Source: Phormidesmis sp.
GTDB taxonomy: Bacteria > Cyanobacteriota > Cyanobacteriia > Leptolyngbyales > Leptolyngbyaceae
DNA length: 64,000 nt
NCBI GenBank assembly: GCA_965248535.1
Contig: CBDFJR010000005.1
Coordinates: forward strand, 896,001-960,000
Reading direction: 5' to 3'
This document shows, in pieces, positions 32,151 through 43,565 of this stretch. Both the position numbers and the translations under genes were made by a program. The notes beneath the pieces were generated by a model. It did not search any database and was not told the origin of the DNA. It was given only the letters and a program-made list of their open reading frames with translations. How positions within the stretch are numbered: position 1 is the stretch's first letter; every line of letters begins with the position of its first letter.

Positions 32151-33839
32151 TCAACTCTCAATGCCATGACTTTTGCCAATCACCCAATGGCGACGAAAGA
32201 AGCGTGCCAGCGAGGTCTCTTCTAGAGAGAGATGAATCGGGCGACCGTGAGGGCAGGTGCGCGGGTTGCGAGTTTGCTGCCACTGATCTAACAGGGTTTG
32301 CATCTCAGTCAGGCTGAGAGGCGTTCCATTGCGAATGGCGCTGCGGCAAGCGGTGGCAACTTGGGCAGATTGCAGATCACCTCCTAGGCTGAGTTCTAGC
32401 AAGGCTTCGGCACAATCGTCTCGATCGACCAGCATTGCAGGCGCAGTCCGAACGGCCCAAAGTTGTTCACCAAAAGGCTCGATCGCTAACCCCAAACGCT
32501 CTAACTGCTCAAGTTGAGCCGTTGATAAATGGTTGAGAATGATGGCAGGCTCTAACGACGTGAGTTGCCAGCGATCGCATACCTGTTCATAAAGCACTCG
32601 TTCGTGAGCGATGTGTTGCTCGACCAGCCACATGCCTGCTGGGTGTTCTGCCAAGATATAGCGGTTGTGCACTTGAGCGATCGCCCGCACTGGAGACAAA
32701 GCCGAAGTCTCTGTTGGGGGCTGATGCTGGATCGCTCGATCAACGGTGTAGCCTCCCTCTGATTCGGCGGTTTTAAGCAGTTTGCCAACGCGCTCTGAGT
32801 AGAAAGGCTCAGACAGTGACTCAGGCTTGAGGCACAAGGTTTGCTCAATGGCCTCGGTGATCTGCCGTTGCCAATGGCTCAGGTGATGGAGATAAACGTC
32901 TGCTTTGGCGGGGTGACGGTTCCAGTCAATGTGCGCGGGCGGCACCTGAAGATGCACTACACAGACGGGATGGCGCTCTCTCGGCAGAGTTTTCCGAAAG
33001 GCTGAAAAAATAGTCTGTTCTAACTCTGGTATGTCGATAAATCGACCGTTGATCGCGACTCGCACCCAGTCGGGGCGGTGCCGATGACAGCGATCGGGCA
33101 ACCCCAACAGCACATAGACCGCCGCTAAAGAGTCGCTTTCTTCAGAAACGGGCACCTCTAGAGTGGTTTCTTGCAAGTCTCCAATCTGCACGCCTCGCAG
33201 AATTTGGGGCAAGATTTTGCGAGCCGTGTCGCCCGCCCAAACGTTAAACCAGTCTCGATCGCTTTGCTGGACTTGCCAGGTGACTTGGGGGTGACTCAGC
33301 GCAATTTGATGAATGATGGACTGAACCGAGCGAATCTGCTGCGCGATCGGGGGCAACCCCTGCCGCCGGGCCAACCAATGGCCAAATAACTGATCGACTG
33401 TGACGATCGTGCCGGGCGCGATCGCGGCTGCCTCAATCTGAAGGGGTGATCCTTCCGGGCTATAAAGCAGTCGCCAGCCTTGAGTTGTCGCGACGGGACG
33501 GCTGATAATCTCTAGTTGCGATAGCTGTGACAGGCTGTGGAGCGCTTCGCCCCGAAAACCGAGGCTGCGAATATTCCACAGGTCTTGGCGATCGTGAATT
33601 TTGCTCGTGGTGTGGGGCAAGGCAGCTTGTTTTAGTGTTTCTAGATCCATGCCTGCTCCATTGTCGGCGACGCGCACGCGCCACTGGTCAGCCCAGAGCG
33701 ACACCATAATCCGAGTTGCCCCAGCGTCGATCGAGTTTTCTACCAATTCGCGCACCACGGCAGCCAGAGAGTCGATCACTTCTCCGGCCGCGATTAAATG
33801 CACGACTTCAGTAGGCAATGGCTGAATGTTAAACCCCAT
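32151..33839 (-). CDS. mutL: DNA mismatch repair protein MutL
   Basis: IAAGEVI, GFRGEAL, QHIAHER and CPHGRP motifs. Confidence 0.96.
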   Translation of the reverse strand: MGFNIQPLPTEVVHLIAAGEVIDSLAAVVRELVENSIDAGATRIMVSLWADQWRVRVADNGAGMDLETLKQAALPHTTSKIHDRQDLWNIRSLGFRGEALHSLSQLSQLEIISRPVATTQGWRLLYSPEGSPLQIEAAAIAPGTIVTVDQLFGHWLARRQGLPPIAQQIRSVQSIIHQIALSHPQVTWQVQQSDRDWFNVWAGDTARKILPQILRGVQIGDLQETTLEVPVSEESDSLAAVYVLLGLPDRCHRHRPDWVRVAINGRFIDIPELEQTIFSAFRKTLPRERHPVCVVHLQVPPAHIDWNRHPAKADVYLHHLSHWQRQITEAIEQTLCLKPESLSEPFYSERVGKLLKTAESEGGYTVDRAIQHQPPTETSALSPVRAIAQVHNRYILAEHPAGMWLVEQHIAHERVLYEQVCDRWQLTSLEPAIILNHLSTAQLEQLERLGLAIEPFGEQLWAVRTAPAMLVDRDDCAEALLELSLGGDLQSAQVATACRSAIRNGTPLSLTEMQTLLDQWQQTRNPRTCPHGRPIHLSLEETSLARFFRRHWVIGKSHGIES

Positions 33840-33866
33840 CCCTCTAGTGTATCGAATTGATTAATC

Positions 33867-34397
33867 TTGTTCTGCATGAACTGGCTTCTTATGATCAAAT
33901 CGAACAGTTACGCAATCATCAAATCGATATTGGCTTTTTCCATAAACACAACTTACAAAACGCTTAAAGAGGATAGCGAGTCTTTTTCTGACACTCTGGT
34001 TCTTCATGAATCACTCGTGCTTGTCCTCCCGGAGAAGCATTTCTTAGCTAAAAAGACGAGTGTTTCACTCGCAGAGCTTAACGGCAAGGAGTTTGTTCTA
34101 CCACCGCACACCTTACTTCGTGGCTTACGCGATAAAATTGATCAACTTTGCATCAGCGCTCACTGTAAGCCAGTCATTGTTTAAGAGGCAGCCTGGATAA
34201 CAACTGTGTTGAGTTTGGTCGCTAGGGATGGGTGTTTCAGTGCTTCCAGCTAATGTGAAAAACCTTCGACGGACTGGGTCGTTTACCGCGATATTCAAGA
34301 ATTCTCTCCAGTGTTAGAAATTGTTGCTGTTAGGAGAACTCACAATCAGTCAACCGTTCTAAGGAATTTCCTCGAAGTTGTTGAGGACTTATCCAAG
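33867..34397 (+). pseudogene. LysR substrate-binding domain remnant
   Basis: ESLVLVLPEKHFLA...; stops and frameshifts; no HTH domain. Confidence 0.6.
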
Positions 34398-34753
34398 TAC
34401 ACTCACCGCTTCTAAGAAATGGACTTTTAGGTCTCCGATCGCGTCAGCGATATGATGAAGTTATCCACTTCACGGGACAGGGGGACTGTTTGGATGATTC
34501 AGGTTGAATTTACTGAGCAGATGATTGAGGAGTTGAAGTACTAACGCGCATTTGAACTTAATCGAACGGTTATGGCGATTTGTGCGTAAAGAATGTTTGT
34601 ACTCTAGATATTATGCTGATTTCTCTGCCTTTAGAAGGGCCATTTCAACCTTGATGGACACAGCGCACATCAACAAACACGAGCAGCTCAAAAGCCTGAT
34701 GAGTTGGCAGTTTCAGTCCTTTAAGAAAGTCCAATTCTTAGCCGAGTAGGGTA
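34398..34753 (+). mobile_element. Internally deleted IS630-family remnant
   Basis: MIQVEFTEQMIEELKY abuts LNLIERLWRFVRKECL; imperfect inverted ends CTAAGAAATGGACT / AGTCCAATTCTTAG. Confidence 0.65.
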
Positions 34754-34838
34754 CATCAGGGTAATTAGCCTCAATTTTTCAGGTACTACAACACTCAATC
34801 AAAAAGCTTGAATACCCTGCTCACACTGGATTTCGGCG

Positions 34839-34926
34839 ACATAACGACCCCGTTCACCCGCCGCTAGGAACCTTTTGGACTCACCGACTCACTTGATACG
34901 GTCGGTGTGCAACGGGATTGTCATTC
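34839..34926 (-). other. attC-like site A (one core degenerate, GTCATTC)
   Basis: ACATAAC..CCCGTTCACC..GGTGTGCAACGGG..GTCATTC; arms nearly identical to site E. Confidence 0.8.
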
Positions 34927-34933
34927 GATGCTT

Positions 34934-35236
34934 CTACTCAATTTTGGATTGTCTCCAGTGCTTCATCTCCTCATCAGTAAAGTGACTAACTAAATCCCGA
35001 TACATTTTTTCAATTGCATCTGCATTTAATCCTTCCTCTTCTGCCCAGACTCGACGCTGCCCTAACATTGCGTGAAAGCGTTCAGGTGCTTTAACGGTAG
35101 TTTCACTCGTCTTGAATTTAGAGGCAGCTTTGACATATGCGAAACGCTGACCAAGTAGAGCAACAACTTGACGATCTAACCGATCAATTTCGGCTCGAAT
35201 ATCCGCCATATTTCCACATTGATTAGGTGTCTTCAT
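34934..35236 (-). CDS. pchB: Isochorismate pyruvate-lyase / chorismate mutase type II (cassette gene)
   Basis: MKTPNQC..MADIRAEIDRLDR...AASKFK..APER. Confidence 0.8.
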   Translation of the reverse strand: MKTPNQCGNMADIRAEIDRLDRQVVALLGQRFAYVKAASKFKTSETTVKAPERFHAMLGQRRVWAEEEGLNADAIEKMYRDLVSHFTDEEMKHWRQSKIE

Positions 35237-35364
35237 AGTTTGCAAAGTTGAGTGATGAGGCTAGTTTTCAACTTGAATCGAGAGTTCACACAACACTGGA
35301 AAATTCACCTGTGTTTTGAAGACTACCCCAACCCGCAAACTTCGCCTTCATGAAGTTCGGGGCA

Positions 35365-35697
35365 TTATGATAAAGCAAGCAGCGATAAACTTTCATCTGC
35401 ATGAAATAATTTGATCGCTTCAAAACTCTGACGTATAAAATTCTCAACTTGCCATGTTGAACAGTTTCCCAAGCGAAGCCAAATAACTTTTGGTGGATTG
35501 CCAAATACTAAGCTCAAATCGTGCATATCCGCCTCTTTTGAGACAATCATCAAATCGTTGTCTTTTGCATAATTCCAAACGATTGGATCGATTGTTGCCT
35601 TCATTCCCACATCTCGAACCTGAAGCGAATTTAGGAAAAGATCGTCCAGACGGTTCGGTAACTTTGGCGACAAGTTTTCATCAAAAAGTAATCTTAT
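35365..35697 (-). pseudogene. DUF5615 PIN-like toxin with start codon mutated to ATA
   Basis: (I)RLLFDENLSP...GNPPKVIWLRLGN. Confidence 0.75.
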
Positions 35698-35924
35698 GCA
35701 GATAATGGAGGAATCATTAACCGACGCTCACGGGCAGCAGCATAAGCAATACAGGCTTTTAAGTCTTCCCGCGTCAGATCGGGAAAATCGTCAAGAATTT
35801 CTGCTTCAGTCATCTCGGAAGCTAGGTGCTAGAGTACCTCATAAACCGTAATTCTTAAACCACGTACACAAGGTTTCCCACCCCGTTTATCAGATTCAAT
35901 TGTGATAAAGTTTTGGTAGCTCAT
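35694..35924 (-). pseudogene. DUF433 antitoxin with premature TAG
   Basis: MSYQNFITIESDKRGGKPCVRGLRITVYEVL*HLASEMTEAEILDDFPDL; stop at 35829-31. Confidence 0.85.
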
Positions 35925-36084
35925 AGTTAAAATCACCTTCATTAAATAGCTCTATTATAAGGCTTCGTCAGTCACAATCAGCACCAACAGAGGCTTTTTA
36001 GACTACTGCCCCAACCAACAGCCTGAGCCGCTGAACGTTCCGGTTGAGCGGTGACAAACCGAACTGGAACGAAGTGCAAAAGCT

Positions 36085-36622
<538 letters not shown>

Positions 36623-36640
36623 TTAGCAGTTAATTCTTCC

Positions 36641-36883
36641 TCAGTTAGCTTCAGGATAAGTTTCCTCTTTACGTATGACTTTAGCAAAACGTCCTGAAGT
36701 CCGCTCAAACAGAACGTCAAATTCACTATTTGGCATCCTCAAATCAATCGGAACTTCTTGAACAGGAAGTACTTCTTGACCGCCATCGTCCGCCAGTCCA
36801 ATACCAGCACAGAGAATTACCGTAATTTCTCCGTCTCGCAAACAGCCCAGAACTCTTGCTGGATAACGCCAGTATTTAGACAT
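36641..36883 (-). CDS. Hypothetical cassette protein
   Basis: 80-aa ORF starting just inside the cassette 5' core. Confidence 0.6.
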   Translation of the reverse strand: MSKYWRYPARVLGCLRDGEITVILCAGIGLADDGGQEVLPVQEVPIDLRMPNSEFDVLFERTSGRFAKVIRKEETYPEAN

Positions 36884-36954
36884 TTTCGGCAGCCCAAAAT
36901 ACTTGAAACTTACAAGCAGCTTCTAAACCACTAGCACAACCCGTAAACGAAGCA

Positions 36955-37739
36955 GGCTAACGCATTGTTGTGCGGCGGCAGATAAGCTTGGACTCTCACC
37001 GATAAGCTCTGTTCCGTCCGCACCAACGCATTGTGTACGCCCAGCATGGGTGTGAACTAATGGGGTGAAAGTCCCCTGTCGGAGAACCAACGTCCAAATG
37101 ATCCCAAAAGATCCGAGTGACGACAACGACTAGCTTAAGGTAAGGGCGTTTCCGCGAGGAAGGGTCTGAAGGAAGCCAGCGGCAAATCTGCGAGCTGACG
37201 GACAGAAACGTCATAGAAGGCTGAGATTCCTGTGGCAAGTGAGCACAACATCATGAAGCCTTTTGGTTCAGGGAACACAGTAAATGACGCAGTTGTGCAG
37301 AGACAGTTCACGTTCTTATCTGGGGAGATCTGCTCAAAGGGCGGTCTGAGGGTCTACGGGAGTCTGATTGAGGTCTAGCGGGAAACGGCTAGGGAGCCAC
37401 GGAACCCTAAGGACATTCAGGCAGCGTGAGTCATGGCAACAGGACTCATGATTGAGCAGAAGTCAGCAGAGGTCATAGTAGCCAAACACTCACCGTAATG
37501 GGTGAGACAGGGTGAAGGGCTGAACCTTAGAAAGCAGGGAGGAGTTGCAAAGCTCGACTGGGCGATGAACCCGAACGGGGGAGCTATTTTGTCGGCGCTT
37601 AACTGCACAACCAGCCCTGGATATTCAGTTCTATTGAACTGGCTTGTCTAAAACTTTTCTGGGGACGCGCCCCGTGCGGAGCCGCACGCGGGGTGCCGTG
37701 GGGACTGGGGGAGAAAATCCCCTGGTTACCCGATTGGGC
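36955..37739 (-). other. attC-like site D, split by the intron (36955-37034 plus 37735-37739)
   Basis: GGCTAAC..GTTGTGCGG..CCGCACCAAC..TTGT|TGGGC. Confidence 0.88.
37035..37734 (+). mobile_element. ORF-less group IIC-attC intron (700 nt)
   Basis: 5' GTACGCCCAGCATGGG; short IIC-type domain V GACGCGCCCCGTGCGGAGCCGCACGCGGGGTGCCGTGG; domain VI ending ACCCGAT; inserted at TTGT/T; no RT ORF. Confidence 0.88.
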
Positions 37740-37746
37740 TGCGCCG

Positions 37747-38130
37747 CTACATGACGCTGACTGGATAAGCACGGACTGCTGCATCTACCGTCGCAATGGT
37801 CAAGCCGTTTTGTAATGCTTGGCAGATTAGCATCCTGTCAAATGGATCACGATGTAATGGCGGCAGTTTAGCCAGTTGAAGCACACTATTTTCATTAAGG
37901 TCAAGACTGGCAATCTGATGAAGATTGCGCTGTTTGGGCAAATACGTTTCGGGATGCTCCGGCAAAGGTAGCTTGCCCAACTGATATTTGACAATCGCTT
38001 CCCAGACTGAAATTGCGCTTAGATAGACCTCGTTGTCTGGATCGCGAATGGCATCTCGAACATCTGGTAACAACTGGGTATCCCCACTGATGAACCACAA
38101 GAAGATATGTGTATCCAGCAGAATTCTCAT
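37747..38130 (-). CDS. VapC PIN-domain toxin
   Basis: LLDTHIFLW, SVWE and HRDPFDRMLICQA motifs. Confidence 0.92.
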   Translation of the reverse strand: MRILLDTHIFLWFISGDTQLLPDVRDAIRDPDNEVYLSAISVWEAIVKYQLGKLPLPEHPETYLPKQRNLHQIASLDLNENSVLQLAKLPPLHRDPFDRMLICQALQNGLTIATVDAAVRAYPVSVM

Positions 38131-38366
38131 TTGCCCTCAAATGCACGGAGAAGATCTTCCGGCAAAGGAGCATCGAAATTATCTGGCACGGTAAACGCTC
38201 CTGCACACAAACCGAATGGTCGCAGCTGCTTACCGCTTGATGAGATCGGTCTTAATTCGGCGATCGCTTTATCTGCTTGAACAATCACAATTGTTTGACC
38301 TGCCTCCACTTGGCGCAGATACTTTGAAGGATCGCGCTGAATTTCATCAACTGTCACACTTAGCAT
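38127..38366 (-). CDS. Phd/YefM-family antitoxin
   Basis: LRQVEAGQTIVI..AELRP..VPDNFDAPLP. Confidence 0.88.
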   Translation of the reverse strand: MLSVTVDEIQRDPSKYLRQVEAGQTIVIVQADKAIAELRPISSSGKQLRPFGLCAGAFTVPDNFDAPLPEDLLRAFEGK

Positions 38367-38374
38367 AAAAAGCC

Positions 38375-38854
38375 TCAGTATAAGCTCAAGGGATAATACT
38401 CTGCTTGATTCAATTGTATATGATGAGTCGTATGCTCCCAGCTAGGATGCGTCTTGAATCCCAACTTCTGATAAAACTCGGCGGCGGCTGGGGTATCGGT
38501 TCGCAACGTCAATAGTTGGTAATGCTGCTTGGCTACGTGAATAAGCTGAGTGACCAGCAAACGTCCCACTCCACGCTTCCGCCAAACTGCCTCAACATAC
38601 AAGTGTCGCAATCTACCAACTTTAGAATCATTCAAATATGGATCTTGATTCAGCCCACCGATTCCAACTATCGCACCGTGTACCGAAGCTGTAAGTAGGA
38701 TTTCACCAGACCGATCAAAGCAATTTAAACCACTACGGTACTCTCGAATCAGTCTTTCAACGAACCAAAACCCCTGGGATAAACTTTCCTCAGCGAGATG
38801 ATGAATTGATTTTGAGTCAAGCTCTGAAATGTGAGCGATCACAATCTGTTGCAT
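38375..38854 (-). CDS. GNAT-family N-acetyltransferase
   Basis: LYVEAVWRKRGVGRLL and FYQKLGF motifs. Confidence 0.9.
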   Translation of the reverse strand: MQQIVIAHISELDSKSIHHLAEESLSQGFWFVERLIREYRSGLNCFDRSGEILLTASVHGAIVGIGGLNQDPYLNDSKVGRLRHLYVEAVWRKRGVGRLLVTQLIHVAKQHYQLLTLRTDTPAAAEFYQKLGFKTHPSWEHTTHHIQLNQAEYYPLSLY

Positions 38855-38943
38855 GAGCCTTGAGAGAATATTGCAAGATTCGATCTTAGCTTTGAATCCC
38901 GACAAGTAAAACTGAAAGACAATCACAGCCAAAAATTCAAGCA

Positions 38944-39031
38944 GCCCAACGACCCCGTTCACCCACCGCTAGTAAACTATCGGATTTACCAACCAACTTC
39001 ATTCGGTCGGTGTGCAACGGGATTGTTATGC
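38944..39031 (-). other. attC-like site E
   Basis: GCCCAAC..CCCGTTCACC..GGTGTGCAACGGG..GTTATGC. Confidence 0.9.
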
Positions 39032-39037
39032 GGTACT

Positions 39038-40249
39038 TCATGTTGCTGATTTAATGTTATCTATTCCAGAATCGGGATGATGAAAGCCACTTGTATCTAA
39101 TGCTGGAATAAGAGTGTAGCCATTATCGTTAAGTATTCCCTTTGCACGTGAAGGCTGAATATATCCTTTGCCATTCATAAAAGTGAAACCATGACAGTTG
39201 TATTCTGGAGTAAGAAGTTCAACTTGCCGAGGTTTCATATTAGGAGGAAAGGTCATCTTTAGATAGGCTTCTGTTCTCTCTTTCTCACCAGGTTCAGCCC
39301 TAAGCCCACTTTTCTGAATAGCAGTTGACCACGCTACAGCATTACCATTTGTTTCATCAAGAGTCCCATCCTGCTTTACTGCGGCATCTGTAAAATAAGC
39401 ATCAACACAGATTATCGTCACACAATATCTCCCACTTCTCAATAGATTACTCCTACTACCATCTTTACGCTTTGCACGGTGTACAGTCCATGATTTTCCA
39501 TAGATACTGTAGTTTGGGTGATGAAGATATAGTCCTTGAGCGCCCCACTTACTCTTAATTTGAGCGACAGTGCCATCTGGATGAACGCCTGTGATGACAC
39601 CTGAGTGAGTAATCGTTCCATCACTTGCTCGATAAATTACAATATCTCCTTGCATCGGTAGAGATTTGTTTACTCTCGTCCAAGTAAAAGTGCCTTCGGT
39701 TACTATAGAACTAGTTGAGGGTTTACAGGAAATCTTGCCTTCTTTTATAGTATTTCCATCACTACTAATAGTCCCAGTATACGTATTAGTATATCCCCAG
39801 CCCACACTTGTTTCTCCAGCCGTTTCAGTAAACTCAACAGTATTATCAGAGTTAACTTTACCTGAGAAGAAATAAGTCAAACTGCCACCTGTCCAAACAA
39901 CCTTACGAGGAGAACTTTTAAGCTGACTACCATCCTGGGTGATCACTATTTCGGATGACTCCCTTCCAGTTTTACCACCAATAGAAGTCACCGAAGGACT
40001 ACCGGGATTACAGCGATCTCTAGTTACCGTAAATCCATCTCGATCGTTTATCCAAGTACCGGTCAAGTCTACATTGCGTGGCACAGACGCAATGTAGACT
40101 TCATCTTTAGGTAAGAAACTATAATAATTGGCTGAACTAAAGCCAAGAAGACCACAGAGGAAAACAGCGATCGTCTTTCGCCAAAAAGCTGTGCTGACAA
40201 CAAGCAGAGAAGTTAGGAGAAAAACTAAAATAAAGCGTAACTGTCGCAT
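39038..40249 (-). CDS. Exported cassette protein with putative Cys/His (papain-like) catalytic motifs
   Basis: Hydrophobic N-terminus, beta-rich domain, GDIVIY..THSG..SKWG, then YNCHGFTF. Confidence 0.55.
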   Translation of the reverse strand: MRQLRFILVFLLTSLLVVSTAFWRKTIAVFLCGLLGFSSANYYSFLPKDEVYIASVPRNVDLTGTWINDRDGFTVTRDRCNPGSPSVTSIGGKTGRESSEIVITQDGSQLKSSPRKVVWTGGSLTYFFSGKVNSDNTVEFTETAGETSVGWGYTNTYTGTISSDGNTIKEGKISCKPSTSSIVTEGTFTWTRVNKSLPMQGDIVIYRASDGTITHSGVITGVHPDGTVAQIKSKWGAQGLYLHHPNYSIYGKSWTVHRAKRKDGSRSNLLRSGRYCVTIICVDAYFTDAAVKQDGTLDETNGNAVAWSTAIQKSGLRAEPGEKERTEAYLKMTFPPNMKPRQVELLTPEYNCHGFTFMNGKGYIQPSRAKGILNDNGYTLIPALDTSGFHHPDSGIDNIKSAT

Positions 40250-40456
40250 GATTCAAGCCTATTGATAGAATGAGATGCCTTAGAAGCTGCTGAGATAAGA
40301 GTTATAAAATCAAGACTCAACCTCACTCTGCTGTATAGAACAGGAGATAAAATGAATCAGCTTATTAACATAAGCTCTGCAATTTAGGAAATGATTGCTC
40401 TCTAGGAGTAACTGAATCAAAGTAGAATTACTACCTTGGAAACCTTGTAATACCAA

Positions 40457-41005
40457 TCACCAGTCCTTCCTTGGAAACTCAAGATCATGTGTTGCATGGC
40501 TTGGATCTTTGTCTAGATATCTTTGTTGTTTTATTCGTAAGTCATTTTCCCTAGATGGCTCATCAGTCCTCAATTGACTATCCTCTCCACTTTTAGAGTT
40601 TCCCCCTCCCATGTTTCTAAGCATAAAAATCAAGCCTGAGGACAGGAAAGAGAACGGCTGCTTCAGAAAAGTTTTAACTATTGCTCCAAGAATATTAGCT
40701 GGAGATGGTTCAATGTTTTCATAAATTAGGCTTTGCCTTATGAAATAGACAACAAACACAATAGCAGCTAGTAGCCCAATCCAATGCCAATTAGCCCATG
40801 CCTGGATAATCAGAAAGATATAGAAAATCCAACGTGTTTTGTCGCTAAATGAGCTTAATACCCAGAGACCAATAACAAAAAATGCAGCGACAACATTACC
40901 GTGTGGAGCAAAGGCGTTATAAATTACGCTGTACACAACTAATGCGACAGCAGCGCCAATATGCAGGTTTCTTCGTATGATTTTCATGATTAGGTAGGTA
41001 AACAA
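40457..41005 (-). CDS. Hypothetical membrane protein (cassette)
   Basis: Several transmembrane-like segments; AT-rich DNA. Confidence 0.6.
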   Translation of the reverse strand: MFTYLIMKIIRRNLHIGAAVALVVYSVIYNAFAPHGNVVAAFFVIGLWVLSSFSDKTRWIFYIFLIIQAWANWHWIGLLAAIVFVVYFIRQSLIYENIEPSPANILGAIVKTFLKQPFSFLSSGLIFMLRNMGGGNSKSGEDSQLRTDEPSRENDLRIKQQRYLDKDPSHATHDLEFPRKDW

Positions 41006-41190
41006 ACGCTAGTTTGACTGGTATCAAGAAAAAATTATTCGGCTTGATTCTGATGTCACGGAACCGATAGCAGGTGTGTTCTTCAATACAAAGTTCCTCA
41101 ATTTTCATCTAGCTGTCTGAGCATCTATGAGATTGAGTTTGGGCAGCGACAGATAAGCATCAATAACTGCCCCCACCGATAACTTAAGAC

Positions 41191-41275
41191 GCATAACGGT
41201 TGCAATCACCGGACTCAGATATCTTCTGCTAGCACCAGTATGCTTCAAAGTTCCGGTGCATTGCGATGGTTAGCT
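41191..41275 (-). other. attC-like site F
   Basis: GCATAAC..GCAATCACCGGA..TCCGGTGCATTGC..GTTAGCT. Confidence 0.9.
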
Positions 41276-41282
41276 TTCGCTT

Positions 41283-42599
41283 TCACAGGTACGGTTTAAG
41301 CTGCTTAAATATTTCATTGGTTTCATATCCGGGTAGTTCATGAATACGGCTCTTTAATATCTCAGATTGGTACTTTGTTGGTGTTGTAAAGCTCCGATTG
41401 TAATTAGAAATCCATCTTTTTACTTCCATATCCACTCTTTGAACAAGTTCAGCTGAATTAGGCGAATTTATTAACCAGAGAAGAAACATTACTTGATCCC
41501 ATTTATCCCGAACTCTATTGAGAGAAAAAGCACATGATTTCATCACAGGATTAGAATCAACAGAACACAAATCTATTAACTCTGGTTCGCTCAATCTCAT
41601 TCTAGCTTGCCGCATTAACCTTGCTGACTCCTTAGCTACACCTGGAGAAGTATCTCGTATCCCAATAGTAAGATATTGTTCAGATTTCTCTCTGTCTAGT
41701 CTAACTAATGCTTGTAGGCTGGCTTTTCGCAGACAAGAGTATTCACTTTTTAGATACTCTGATATAGCACTTATTGCCGCAATACAATTAATTTCAGACA
41801 ACCCTAACAATGCACTTCTCAATTGTCTTAACTTACTTTGCTTCGCAGATAGCTTTTGCAAATACAGACTCTGAACATCAACACTTATTTCAACTAATTT
41901 CTTGACAGCAATTTCTCTGATCGAAGCGTGACGGTCAAATGCAAATAATTCAAGAAGATTTTTAGAAGTGTCTGAAAATCGATTCAAAGACAATAATAAG
42001 GTTGTACGTCGGACGGGCATAAATGGATCTTGAAGACCAAATTTCATGACTTCTTTCAGTTGATCATCCGCAAGCAAATTAAACAAATTAGCTATAGTAG
42101 AGCGAACTACAATGTCATGACTGCCTATGCAGTGGAGTACGATTTGGTATGGCTGCAACAGCTGATGATCGATGGTTAAGTGCAGGCAACAACGCGCCAC
42201 AAGGGGATTAGCACTTGTGCACCCATCTACAACTTTCGCTTTATTCTCTCCACTAAGTAGAAACGATTCAACGGCTGTGATTAGCTCGCTATGATCGTCT
42301 CTATAACAATTCTCAAGATGATAAATATTGGGCAGCGCATCGATAAACGCCAATGCGTTTTCTTCGATTAACAATTCTTTAAGTGCTGTATATGAAGCAG
42401 ATCTTACCTGTGGAACCCAATCATTTGCCCGTTTAATGAGTATAGGAAGTGTGATCGAAGTGCCAACCAGCCCCAATTGACGAACTGCCTTTTCTCGTTC
42501 ATAGCCGTTCCAACTATCTGCCAGTTTCAGAAGCTCATCGATACTCTTCTGCTTGTAGAACCATTGATGCCACTTTTTCAAAAGCCCTCCTCGACCCAC
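41283..42599 (-). CDS. HEAT-repeat protein (first cassette)
   Basis: NGYEREKAVRQL..RANDWVPQVR and further HEAT-like repeats. Confidence 0.75.
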   Translation of the reverse strand: MGRGGLLKKWHQWFYKQKSIDELLKLADSWNGYEREKAVRQLGLVGTSITLPILIKRANDWVPQVRSASYTALKELLIEENALAFIDALPNIYHLENCYRDDHSELITAVESFLLSGENKAKVVDGCTSANPLVARCCLHLTIDHQLLQPYQIVLHCIGSHDIVVRSTIANLFNLLADDQLKEVMKFGLQDPFMPVRRTTLLLSLNRFSDTSKNLLELFAFDRHASIREIAVKKLVEISVDVQSLYLQKLSAKQSKLRQLRSALLGLSEINCIAAISAISEYLKSEYSCLRKASLQALVRLDREKSEQYLTIGIRDTSPGVAKESARLMRQARMRLSEPELIDLCSVDSNPVMKSCAFSLNRVRDKWDQVMFLLWLINSPNSAELVQRVDMEVKRWISNYNRSFTTPTKYQSEILKSRIHELPGYETNEIFKQLKPYL

Positions 42600-42611
42600 T
42601 GATGTTGAGAA

Positions 42612-42773
42612 AGCTAACTACTATTTCTGCCGTTTGAACTCCTATCAAACAGGATAAATGCCTCTCTCAGGGAAATTATGCTGTATGCAAACCGGATAAC
42701 GCCCATTATTTTAGGAATTATACTGAATTTCCACAGGATAACTCTCCGATTTCGGGTAATTATACGGAATGGC
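42612..42773 (-). other. Candidate attI-like site with three 42-bp-periodic repeats
   Basis: Core AGCTAAC at 42612; GGATAA at 42652, 42694, 42736; ATTAT at 42675, 42717, 42759. Confidence 0.55.
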
Positions 42774-43193
42774 ACTCAGGTTTTTCGATTCTAAGGGAGC
42801 CAAAAGTAAATTGTCTCGTTCCGATGAATCAGTCATGGCGCTGAGTCGATCGAGTCCCTGCCGTTGCTCGACTGGAACATAAATTAGGGAGAAGTTACGA
42901 TCGCGTCCCTCTCCCTCAAAAAGTCAGCATTCCAAAAAACAAAAAACTCTTGTACAATACACCGCAGTGATGGAGTTGTGCCCCGGAAATCTGATCGGCT
43001 AAATCAGACTCCGAGGACTTCCATCCCTAGTTAGACCAATTAACTCAGGAGGCGTTCATGATTGTACACCGTCGGCTTTGCTATGGGATCTTGAAAGGCT
43101 GGAATCAAGATCCTGCATACAGTTTTCACCCCAACCAAATGTCTGAGAGATCCGTGTTTTTGTCCTCTTTAACTTAACTAAGAGGACAAAAAC

Positions 43194-43565
43194 ATGGGAG
43201 TTAGGACGATCGTGCCTAGCTCGATTTCGTTCACCGTTGAGTTGCGATGCTCAATCGAAAAGCGTTATCGAGTTAGCGTGGTTTTGGATTTACAAGAGCG
43301 TTATCTTTTTGTGCCGTCTGGCATTCTCGTGAATGTTGGCGATCGCATTGAAGAGTTCGTCTCAGAACTGAGTGAGATTGCGTCTAATCAACTGGCATTT
43401 CTGAAGTGGGATGACACCAGTGATTTGACCACAGAGTATCAAGTTGTTCGAGTGTTGCCTGGTTATCAGGTTGAACGTTCTTTAATGAAGTTCAACATTG
43501 TTCTGGGTAATGGTGCACTGATTCAAGTAGAGGAGTTGCACAACAAAACGACGATTCAACTGTAG
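43194..43565 (+). CDS. Hypothetical protein preceded by a structured leader
   Basis: 123-aa ORF, AGAGGA RBS, hairpin downstream at ~43573-43612. Confidence 0.6.
   Translation: MGVRTIVPSSISFTVELRCSIEKRYRVSVVLDLQERYLFVPSGILVNVGDRIEEFVSELSEIASNQLAFLKWDDTSDLTTEYQVVRVLPGYQVERSLMKFNIVLGNGALIQVEELHNKTTIQL

Follow-up and report, generated by a model that had tools for sequence, protein, structure and literature searches.

A 64,000-nt stretch of a Phormidesmis sp. genome (the window, to which coordinates refer unless a contig is named) carries a 700-nt element at positions 37035-37734 that we identify, close to certainly, as an ORF-less group IIC-attC intron. The element is a derivative of the group IIC-attC lineage rather than a standard member, and it has no IEP of its own in domain IV. 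It combines a complete ribozyme and no RT gene with multiple copies in the genome, which bears out the non-autonomous derivative proposed in an initial annotation made from the letters of this DNA. We consider it probable that an IEP provided in trans mobilised the intron recently. The uncertainty in this explanation lies with the trans helper, because that helper is broken.

Both ends of the element carry conserved group II termini on the plus strand, with 5' GUACG of the GUNCG type (GTACG in the DNA, at 37035) and 3' GAU of the AY type (ACCCGAT, at 37734). An Rfam search found three families on the plus strand, all passing the curated thresholds: RF02001 (group-II-D1D4-3, 127.8 bits), RF01998 (group-II-D1D4-1, 63.7 bits) and RF00029 (domains V/VI). 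The RF00029 match, obtained by searching this stretch alone, reaches 43.5 bits (gathering score 40), covers model positions 1-77 and stops on the final base of the element. The boundaries are exact, because six copies in this genome are 100% identical over exactly nt 1-700. Ends, family matches and identical copies thus agree with the initial description of a 700-nt antisense element with IIC-like domains V and VI, for which Rfam group II models had been suggested as a check. The parts of the intron are as follows.

37035..37734 (700 nt), plus strand: ORF-less group IIC-attC intron, GUACG to ACCCGAU; three Rfam matches, six identical copies, consensus fold
37040..37324, plus strand: domain I (approximate limits, from RNAalifold); holds the RF02001 region, 37148-37314
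37243..37250, plus strand: EBS1 loop GCACAACA with ACAA at 37245-37248; 8-nt hairpin loop in the RF02001 model
37325..37520, plus strand: domains II and III with the J2/3 linker (approximate limits); holds the RF01998 match, 37425-37520
37525..37664, plus strand: domain IV stub; Shine-Dalgarno (SD) sequence at 37537-37543, former RT start ATG at 37565-37567, hairpin core at 37550-37600
37667..37696, plus strand: domain V; 8-bp lower helix with CGC triad, 2-nt bulge and short upper helix, from the RF00029 alignment
37700..37731, plus strand: domain VI; 13 pairs, four with compensatory change

The longest plus-strand reading frames overlapping the intron measure 48, 49 and 40 aa, none exceeding 49 aa, and whole-genome profile searches with PF00078 (RVT_1), PF08388 (GIIM) and TIGR04416 gave no match inside it. 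What is left of an RT gene is an SD sequence, a start codon and about 27 first codons' worth of sequence, kept as a hairpin. The earlier statement that there is no RT ORF, at most a short remnant, therefore holds. Relative to a full-length intron of 1998 nt elsewhere in this genome, the element lacks about 1.3 kb of the coding part of the IEP gene, beginning just past the domain IV hairpin.

A consensus structure was predicted with RNAalifold from an alignment of six ORF-less sequences, of which this genome and genome G010 contributed two each and G014 and G047 one each. The consensus comprises 213 pairs, laid out as domains I to VI. Counted on the five distinct rows, 96.8% of paired cells can pair, where shuffles average 91.0 and sliding the partners leaves 37-46%. 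Both partners have changed in 51 pairs, a count that averages 21.8 in shuffles and falls to 4-13 with slid partners; none of 500 shuffles reached the observed values, and the structure was predicted from the same small alignment, which flatters these counts. The concern raised at the outset, that domains I-VI might not fold, is thus answered by a six-domain fold with covariation. The three Rfam matches are independent of the six-sequence alignment.

Individual helices follow the same pattern. The ACAA at 37245-37248, initially put forward as a candidate EBS1, proves to lie in the loop of a hairpin of the RF02001 model; the loop is invariant in all six aligned sequences, and two of the four pairs in its closing stem have changed on both sides. 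A hairpin in domain II/III (alignment columns 398-422) has both partners replaced in six of nine pairs. Domain V contains 12 pairs, two of them with compensatory change, and its lower helix starts with GCGCC at the place where the Rfam consensus has GAGCC. Domain V of class IIC introns carries the catalytic triad CGC in place of AGC. The predicted fold of domain VI leaves an A bulged out at 37728, 7 nt short of the 3' end, and this A is the candidate branch point.

In the domain IV stub, all nine pairs of the hairpin core (helix 26) are invariant among ORF-less copies. A global alignment of ORF-less and full-length introns is meaningless past nt 450. Anchoring on the SD sequence resolved one homologous hairpin common to five ORF-less and four full-length introns, and a plasmid-borne IIC-attC intron has a hairpin of the same construction. 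It extends from the SD sequence to a CCAGCC box about 85 nt downstream, which pairs with the SD region, and the start codon lies within the hairpin. In the full-length relatives and the plasmid intron, the RT gene begins with this hairpin. In Ll.LtrB, the primary binding site of the IEP is the domain IVa hairpin with its SD sequence and start codon. By analogy, the hairpin may be what a trans-dependent intron would retain, and it is a candidate docking site for the IEP. We also considered that the stub might encode a conserved small peptide and rejected this, as the G047 copy has lost one nucleotide and is out of frame after codon 7; it is therefore the RNA, and no peptide, that is under constraint.

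The intron splits an attC site. Group IIC introns typically insert directly behind a hairpin and use a short IBS1 in place of a long homing site. IIC-attC introns have the consensus TTGT/T (IBS1/IBS3) in the R'' box of the attC bottom strand, opposite to the direction of cassette transcription (available text of PMC7923331 and PMC3001079). All of these elements can be placed around the window copy, and the 5' exon supplies the upstream hairpin that IIC introns need.

36949..37034, plus strand: 5' exon, an attC bottom strand (complement of R', L', variable loop, L'' and the first two bases, GT, of the R'' complement), from the attC model and fold
37031..37034, plus strand: IBS1 TTGT, last four bases of the 5' exon, complementary to EBS1 ACAA
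37735..37741, plus strand: 3' exon, the remaining R'' complement TGGGC and bases beyond; its first T is IBS3
34833..41280, minus strand: integrase-less cassette array (CALIN) hosting the intron, with five attC sites whose bottom strands lie on the plus strand
34833-34932, 36024-36120, 36949-37046 (split), 38938-39037 and 41185-41280, plus strand: attC sites (bottom strand), from the covariance model
Cassette genes, minus strand: chorismate-mutase-like, DUF5615, BrnT, Phd-like plus PIN, GNAT and a 403-aa ORF

The left junction reads CATTGT and the right TGGGC, as expected for TTGT/T insertion just after an attC hairpin, and excision gives GTTGGGC, the core that the initial annotation expected to be restored. 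Once the intron has been taken out in silico, the strand can form a hairpin with R box, spacer and bulged L box (dG -16.8). The stop codon of the PIN-domain gene lies at 37747-37749 on the minus strand, so that the intron sits 12 bases beyond the stop and antisense to the gene.

Detection of attC sites relied on a covariance model (R1) built from seven intact attC sites of this same genome, which matched 36949-37046 with 33.3 bits (E 1.8e-06). It was used instead of scans with regular expressions, which returned 0 sites when strict and then 13, and of a fold-based AAC...GTT scan, which returned 0 under a strict threshold and later 72 sites, most of them spurious. Its five plus-strand sites in the array, the split one included, sustain the idea that the intron independently supports the attC calls. 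The genome encodes two integron integrases (C2:161487-162425 and C2:1131581-1132513; 468 and 466 bits, cut-off 265), and both genes adjoin arrays on contig C2 that also hold intron copies. The window array is a CALIN, because no integrase is found there and both integrase genes are on another contig.

Genome-wide, the model gave 53 matches, seven of which are the opposite strand of another match, leaving about 46 sites. Seven of the modelled sites are split by an intron, and two more split sites fall under the threshold, for nine in all. With its R'' 700 nt away from the rest, a split attC would no longer be able to fold into a recombination substrate. About one fifth of the attC-like sites of this genome are thus split and probably disabled for cassette recombination. 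A promoter and terminator scan of 36500-38000 found no more than shuffled sequence did: one weak promoter-like site outside the intron, no terminator-like site and, inside the intron, no promoter-like site on either strand. The window also contains 55 HIP1 octamers against 1.39 expected, in keeping with a cyanobacterial host.

A blastn search of the 5.03-Mb, five-contig genome with the 700 bases of the intron returned ten matches, on contigs C5 (which includes the window) and C2.

C5:44914-45613, C5:793639-794338, C5:933035-933734 (window copy), C2:156856-157555, C2:1133221-1133920 and C2:1136164-1136863: six copies, 100% identical over nt 1-700
C2:609290-609979: copy 98.6% identical, with a mutated 5' junction and small deletions, decaying
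C5:1939398-1940095: copy 84.9% identical, 698 nt
C2:378132-378261: 130-nt fragment
C2:1673018-1675015 (1998 nt): related full-length intron in an attC, IEP gene broken; 79% identical to the ORF-less form, over nt 1-447 only

The genome search suggested initially has thus turned up six identical and two diverged copies, and the element is not the single-copy relic that had been feared. All eight ORF-less copies are antisense to the cassettes, are preceded by an attC-type imperfect palindrome and are followed by T at +1. The tetranucleotide directly ahead of the intron is TTGT in six of them and ATGT in one; the remaining junction is that of the decaying copy and is mutated. What the junctions share is limited to NNGT|T of the R'' box, and the full-length relative is likewise inserted in an attC bottom strand. 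Folded as DNA after in silico excision, the site of each ORF-less copy takes the shape of an attC bottom strand with R box, spacer, bulged L box and variable loop. The flanks differ between copies, and the genome contains no paralogue of the sequences flanking the window copy, from which we conclude that the copies are independent insertions and not duplicated cassettes. The identical copies mark a recent multiplication of the intron in this genome.

One 275-nt contig of sequencing run X1 passes directly from 37033 to 37734, leaving out exactly 700 nt. The shorter side of this joint measures only 27 nt, and the left-flank contig ends 30 bases before the junction. The contig hints either at filled and empty sites coexisting or at ligated exons. 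RNA-library contigs from ice metagenomes also contain ORF-less intron sequence of 90-100% similarity, which is no proof of transcription; the four runs used consist of contigs and are uninformative on strand and level.

The annotation had suggested an RT acting in trans, and this part fared unevenly: a related full-length intron is present in the genome, but its RT gene is split and there is no other group II RT. In the full-length intron, an imperfect tandem duplication of 68 nt and three extra bases break the IEP gene into pieces of 172 and 325 aa. Across the genome, TIGR04416 gave no match over its cut-off, and the sole other RT, considered as a second helper, is retron-type. A second domain V (C5:1439336) was rejected as a helper source since what remains there is the 3' part of an unrelated intron of the endonuclease type, without the RT part.

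We searched the order with a 255-nt probe spanning the ORF-less junction (37480-37734), requiring a contiguous match. The probe matches 15 of 90 genomes, in nine of 27 genera. G010 carries at least nine ORF-less copies and G047, a genome of another family, carries another; in the other genomes, all five copies with a complete 5' end are preceded by NNGT. The ORF-less form is therefore a lineage of some age and spread. The option that it was deleted in place does not survive, as the same ORF-less architecture and domain IV stub recur in the six identical copies and in other genera.

Most of the cognate RT genes are decayed. Intact cognate IEPs in relatives measure 444-457 aa and have RVT_1 and GIIM domains and no endonuclease domain, a class IIC feature read here from the intact cognate IEP of G018 (444 aa). 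With an intact cognate IEP as query, 19 of 90 genomes gave matches of at least 58% identity, and full-length, stop-free genes are confined to five of them (G018, G102, G035, G074 and G016). The remaining matches are fragments or contain stops or frameshifts. A conserved in-frame TGA, which would point to recoding, was considered and rejected: the stops fall at differing codons (240, 372, 431, 75 and 42/280/282). Because they differ from genome to genome, we conclude that the genes underwent ordinary independent decay. Traces of the cognate IEP occur in seven of the 15 carriers and in 12 of the 75 other genomes, counts in which related genomes are not independent samples. Just one carrier, G035, encodes the cognate IEP intact. 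Draft assemblies, of which there are many in this set, may lose 2-kb repeats; the near-complete assemblies G000, G010 and G109, the last two of them carriers, also contain no intact cognate IEP. Intact group II IEPs of other kinds are encoded by all five carrier genomes checked.

We propose that the intron would be transcribed from the plus strand, antisense to the cassettes, and would splice. The excised RNA could then reverse-splice into single-stranded attC bottom-strand hairpins, with the target recognised through the hairpin, the EBS1(ACAA)/IBS1(TTGT) pairing and T at +1, and the inserted RNA would be copied to DNA by the IEP of a full-length relative, acting in trans. Since the helper gene is now broken, the burst would either pre-date the break or have used another RT source. 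Several observations speak against mobilisation in trans. There is no intact helper here and the cognate IEP is intact in a single carrier, the full-length intron is only 79% identical to the ORF-less copies within nt 1-447, and there is no promoter-like site on the plus strand. The identity of the six copies could also owe something to gene conversion.

The main rival, which we regard as rather unlikely, is mobility without a cognate IEP. The ORF-less RNA would cleave single-stranded attC DNA, or reverse-splice into it, unaided, like a HYER, and the insertion would be fixed by a non-cognate polymerase such as another group II IEP, a retron RT or a host DNA polymerase. This would account for six identical copies in a genome with no intact group II IEP and for the 14 of 15 carriers in the same position with respect to the cognate IEP, and the group II IEPs of other kinds in the five checked carriers could provide the polymerase. 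ORF-less IIC introns are moreover reported to hydrolyse DNA protein-free (available text of PMC11754743 and PMC12990946). Copying the insert from RNA to DNA would nevertheless still require an RT, and the strictly conserved domain IV hairpin, common to the full-length introns, suits an element that depends on an IEP. The co-occurrence of IEP remnants with carriers is as expected if helpers decayed, the scattered stops indicate ordinary independent decay, and draft assemblies can lose a 2-kb repeat such as an intact helper. A broader version, in which an old RT-less IIC-attC lineage keeps multiplying and spreading without a protein of its own wherever the cognate RT has decayed or is absent, is similarly doubtful in our judgement; it could proceed by HYER-type attack with a non-cognate polymerase, or the intron could be a hyperparasite of passing group II RTs.

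Two further explanations carry little weight beside mobilisation in trans. That the intron is an immobile relic, a dead deletion derivative spread or homogenised by cassette duplication, integrase recombination or gene conversion, is very improbable. It would fit the lack of an intact helper RT and the decay of the copy at C2:609290-609979, and in a cyanobacterium, repeats of 700 nt could plausibly undergo gene conversion. The eight copies, however, occupy eight different attC sites in different cassettes and break the same R'' base. We saw no extended flanking homology and no differing breakpoints, and the flanks of the window copy lack a paralogue. The junction is also not the crossover point of the integron integrase, which lies in R', and the ribozyme helices have been maintained by compensatory changes across genera. 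We give equally little credence to a domesticated lock, kept by the host to immobilise cassettes (here a Phd/PIN toxin-antitoxin) or for an outward promoter. Nine intron-split sites against about 46 attC-like sites would agree with such a role, and outward promoters are documented for integron-borne IIC-attC introns (available text of PMC3001079). Against it, the intron has no promoter-like site on either strand, the occupied cassettes have no evident common theme, and the copy numbers follow the pattern of a selfish repeat.

An intron of this kind is already known, and what makes this one worth following is the pattern of decayed helpers together with the conserved domain IV hairpin. With its exact ends, covarying six-domain fold, strict target rule, recent six-copy burst and a lineage that extends over many genera, it offers a natural system for asking how non-autonomous group II introns get mobilised and which RNA element is kept to borrow an RT, for which the invariant domain IV hairpin is a candidate. 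The intron also marks attC sites independently of attC-finding software. Were spread independent of an RT true, integron attC sites would be natural targets of HYER-type ribozymes.

The closest known systems are the group IIC-attC introns of the S.ma.I2 / Kl.pn type (Quiroga 2008 and Leon & Roy 2009-2010, as cited in the available text of PMC3001079 and PMC7923331). For comparison we used an intron on plasmid NZ_CP031121, located between catB3 and qacEdelta1 in an intI1 (class 1 integron) array and antisense to the cassettes. It matches the same three Rfam families with 132.7, 62.2 and 48.6 bits, shares its first 16 bases after ATTGT with the window intron, has the same CGC in domain V, and is 68.8% identical over domains I-III and 79% over domains V-VI. 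Both follow the rule of IIC-attC introns, with insertion at TTGT/T in R'' of the attC bottom strand, antisense to the cassettes, and the domain IV hairpin has the same construction. The G018 IEP is 52% identical to the ltrA product of NZ_CP031121 over 97% of its length. When the same IEP was searched against plasmid records, at least 5000 of which matched, 39 of the 40 matches listed are annotated as group II RT/maturase, at about 52% identity, and in the one record examined (H12) the RT gene lies inside a class 1 integron array. Judged by this sequence similarity, the IEP of the full-length relatives likely falls within the IIC-attC clade. Unlike IIC-attC introns, the window element has no IEP gene and measures 700 nt instead of about 1.9-2.0 kb, is multi-copy, and resides in cyanobacterial chromosomal integrons and CALINs rather than in a clinical class 1 integron. 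The promoter scan also detected no outward promoter in it.

The HYERs of Liu et al. (Science 2024) are said to propagate in multiple copies. Compared by description only, they resemble the window element in being class IIC ribozymes of about 0.6-0.7 kb without a coding region, present in several copies in a genome; the window element differs in keeping a domain IV hairpin of the IEP type, a sign that it depends on a protein rather than functioning protein-free. ORF-less class IIC introns have already been published as HYERs, and in the available text of the two papers (PMC11754743, PMC12990946) they are not linked to attC sites or integrons. A literature search, with subscription papers outside it, found neither an ORF-less IIC-attC lineage nor a link between HYERs and integrons described.

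The ORF-less introns known from cyanobacteria as mobilised or spliced in trans are chloroplast-like (IIB) introns homing to gene sites. As in the window genome, ORF-less copies exist there beside a related ORF-containing intron, whose IEP has been proposed to act in trans (available text of PMC4424553). The window element differs in being a IIC intron that targets attC hairpins and in that the related IEP is broken. The same source, in its available text, calls ORF-less derivatives rare and short-lived (PMC4424553), whereas the lineage described here spans nine of the 27 genera sampled.

The cassette array of the window (33425-43339, about 10 kb) is a HIP1-poor island, with a single site for the HIP1 octamer GCGATCGC (at 38260) versus 54 in the remaining 54 kb. 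This scarcity is consistent with horizontal acquisition of the cassette DNA. The cassette whose attC is split by the ORF-less group IIC intron carries an antitoxin-toxin pair:

window 37750-38366, minus strand: cassette with intron-split attC, antitoxin and toxin genes

The antitoxin is Phd/YefM-like (79 aa, a weak match) and the toxin is a PIN-domain protein of 127 aa. Just upstream, 9 bases from the pair, is the end of a GNAT acetyltransferase gene. No attC was detected between this gene and the Phd/YefM-like and PIN genes, and thus all three may form a single three-gene cassette.

Public sequencing runs also bear on the intron. In run X1, which has the same organism label, one contig connects the flanks at 37033 and 37734 and omits exactly the 700-nt intron; this contig may reflect either splicing or an allele whose site is empty. 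The ice metatranscriptome runs X9 and X13 yielded contigs with ORF-less intron sequence 90-100% similar to that of the window. One of these contigs, 2200 nt long, covers domains I-VI without a break, matching 37198-37741 of the window apart from 7 differences. The presence of such contigs in RNA libraries does not prove transcription.

The genome that includes the window (G000) encodes two complete integron integrases, both on contig C2:

C2:161487-162425: integron integrase gene, complete
C2:1131581-1132513: integron integrase gene, complete

The array adjoining the latter comprises six attC sites predicted by model (1132822 to 1140404), and identical copies of the ORF-less intron occupy attC no. 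2 and no. 4.

Other group II introns and reverse transcriptases (RTs) are encoded elsewhere in G000, on contigs C2 and C5 (positions in the extracted stretches in brackets):

C2:1673018-1675015 (L010 1-1998): full-length IIC-attC intron in an attC site
C5:1439030-1439412 (L045 3030-3413): unrelated group II intron, 3' fragment
C2:2381100-2382221 (L012 1309-2430): retron-type reverse transcriptase, 373 aa
C2:378132-378261: orphan ORF-less intron fragment, 130 nt, end of domain III and domain IV hairpin

In the full-length intron, a 68-nt imperfect tandem duplication breaks the RT gene in two; some 730 bases downstream lies the start of an IS-type transposase ORF. The C5 fragment consists of an HNH-type endonuclease remnant followed by domain V (RF00029, 45.9 bits); the RT part and matches to domains I-IV are absent from it. 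The 130-nt fragment lies outside any attC site and is nearer to the 85%-identity subfamily of ORF-less introns. The top NCBIfam matches of the 373-aa RT are retron families, every one below its cut-off, and a 279-aa ORF is located directly upstream.

In the related genome G109 (9 contigs), a different group II intron-encoded RT gene, coding for 460 aa, is present in about 15 near-identical copies, alongside two ORF-less attC-type introns. The 460-aa gene copies represent an intron burst that is separate from the ORF-less attC-type introns.
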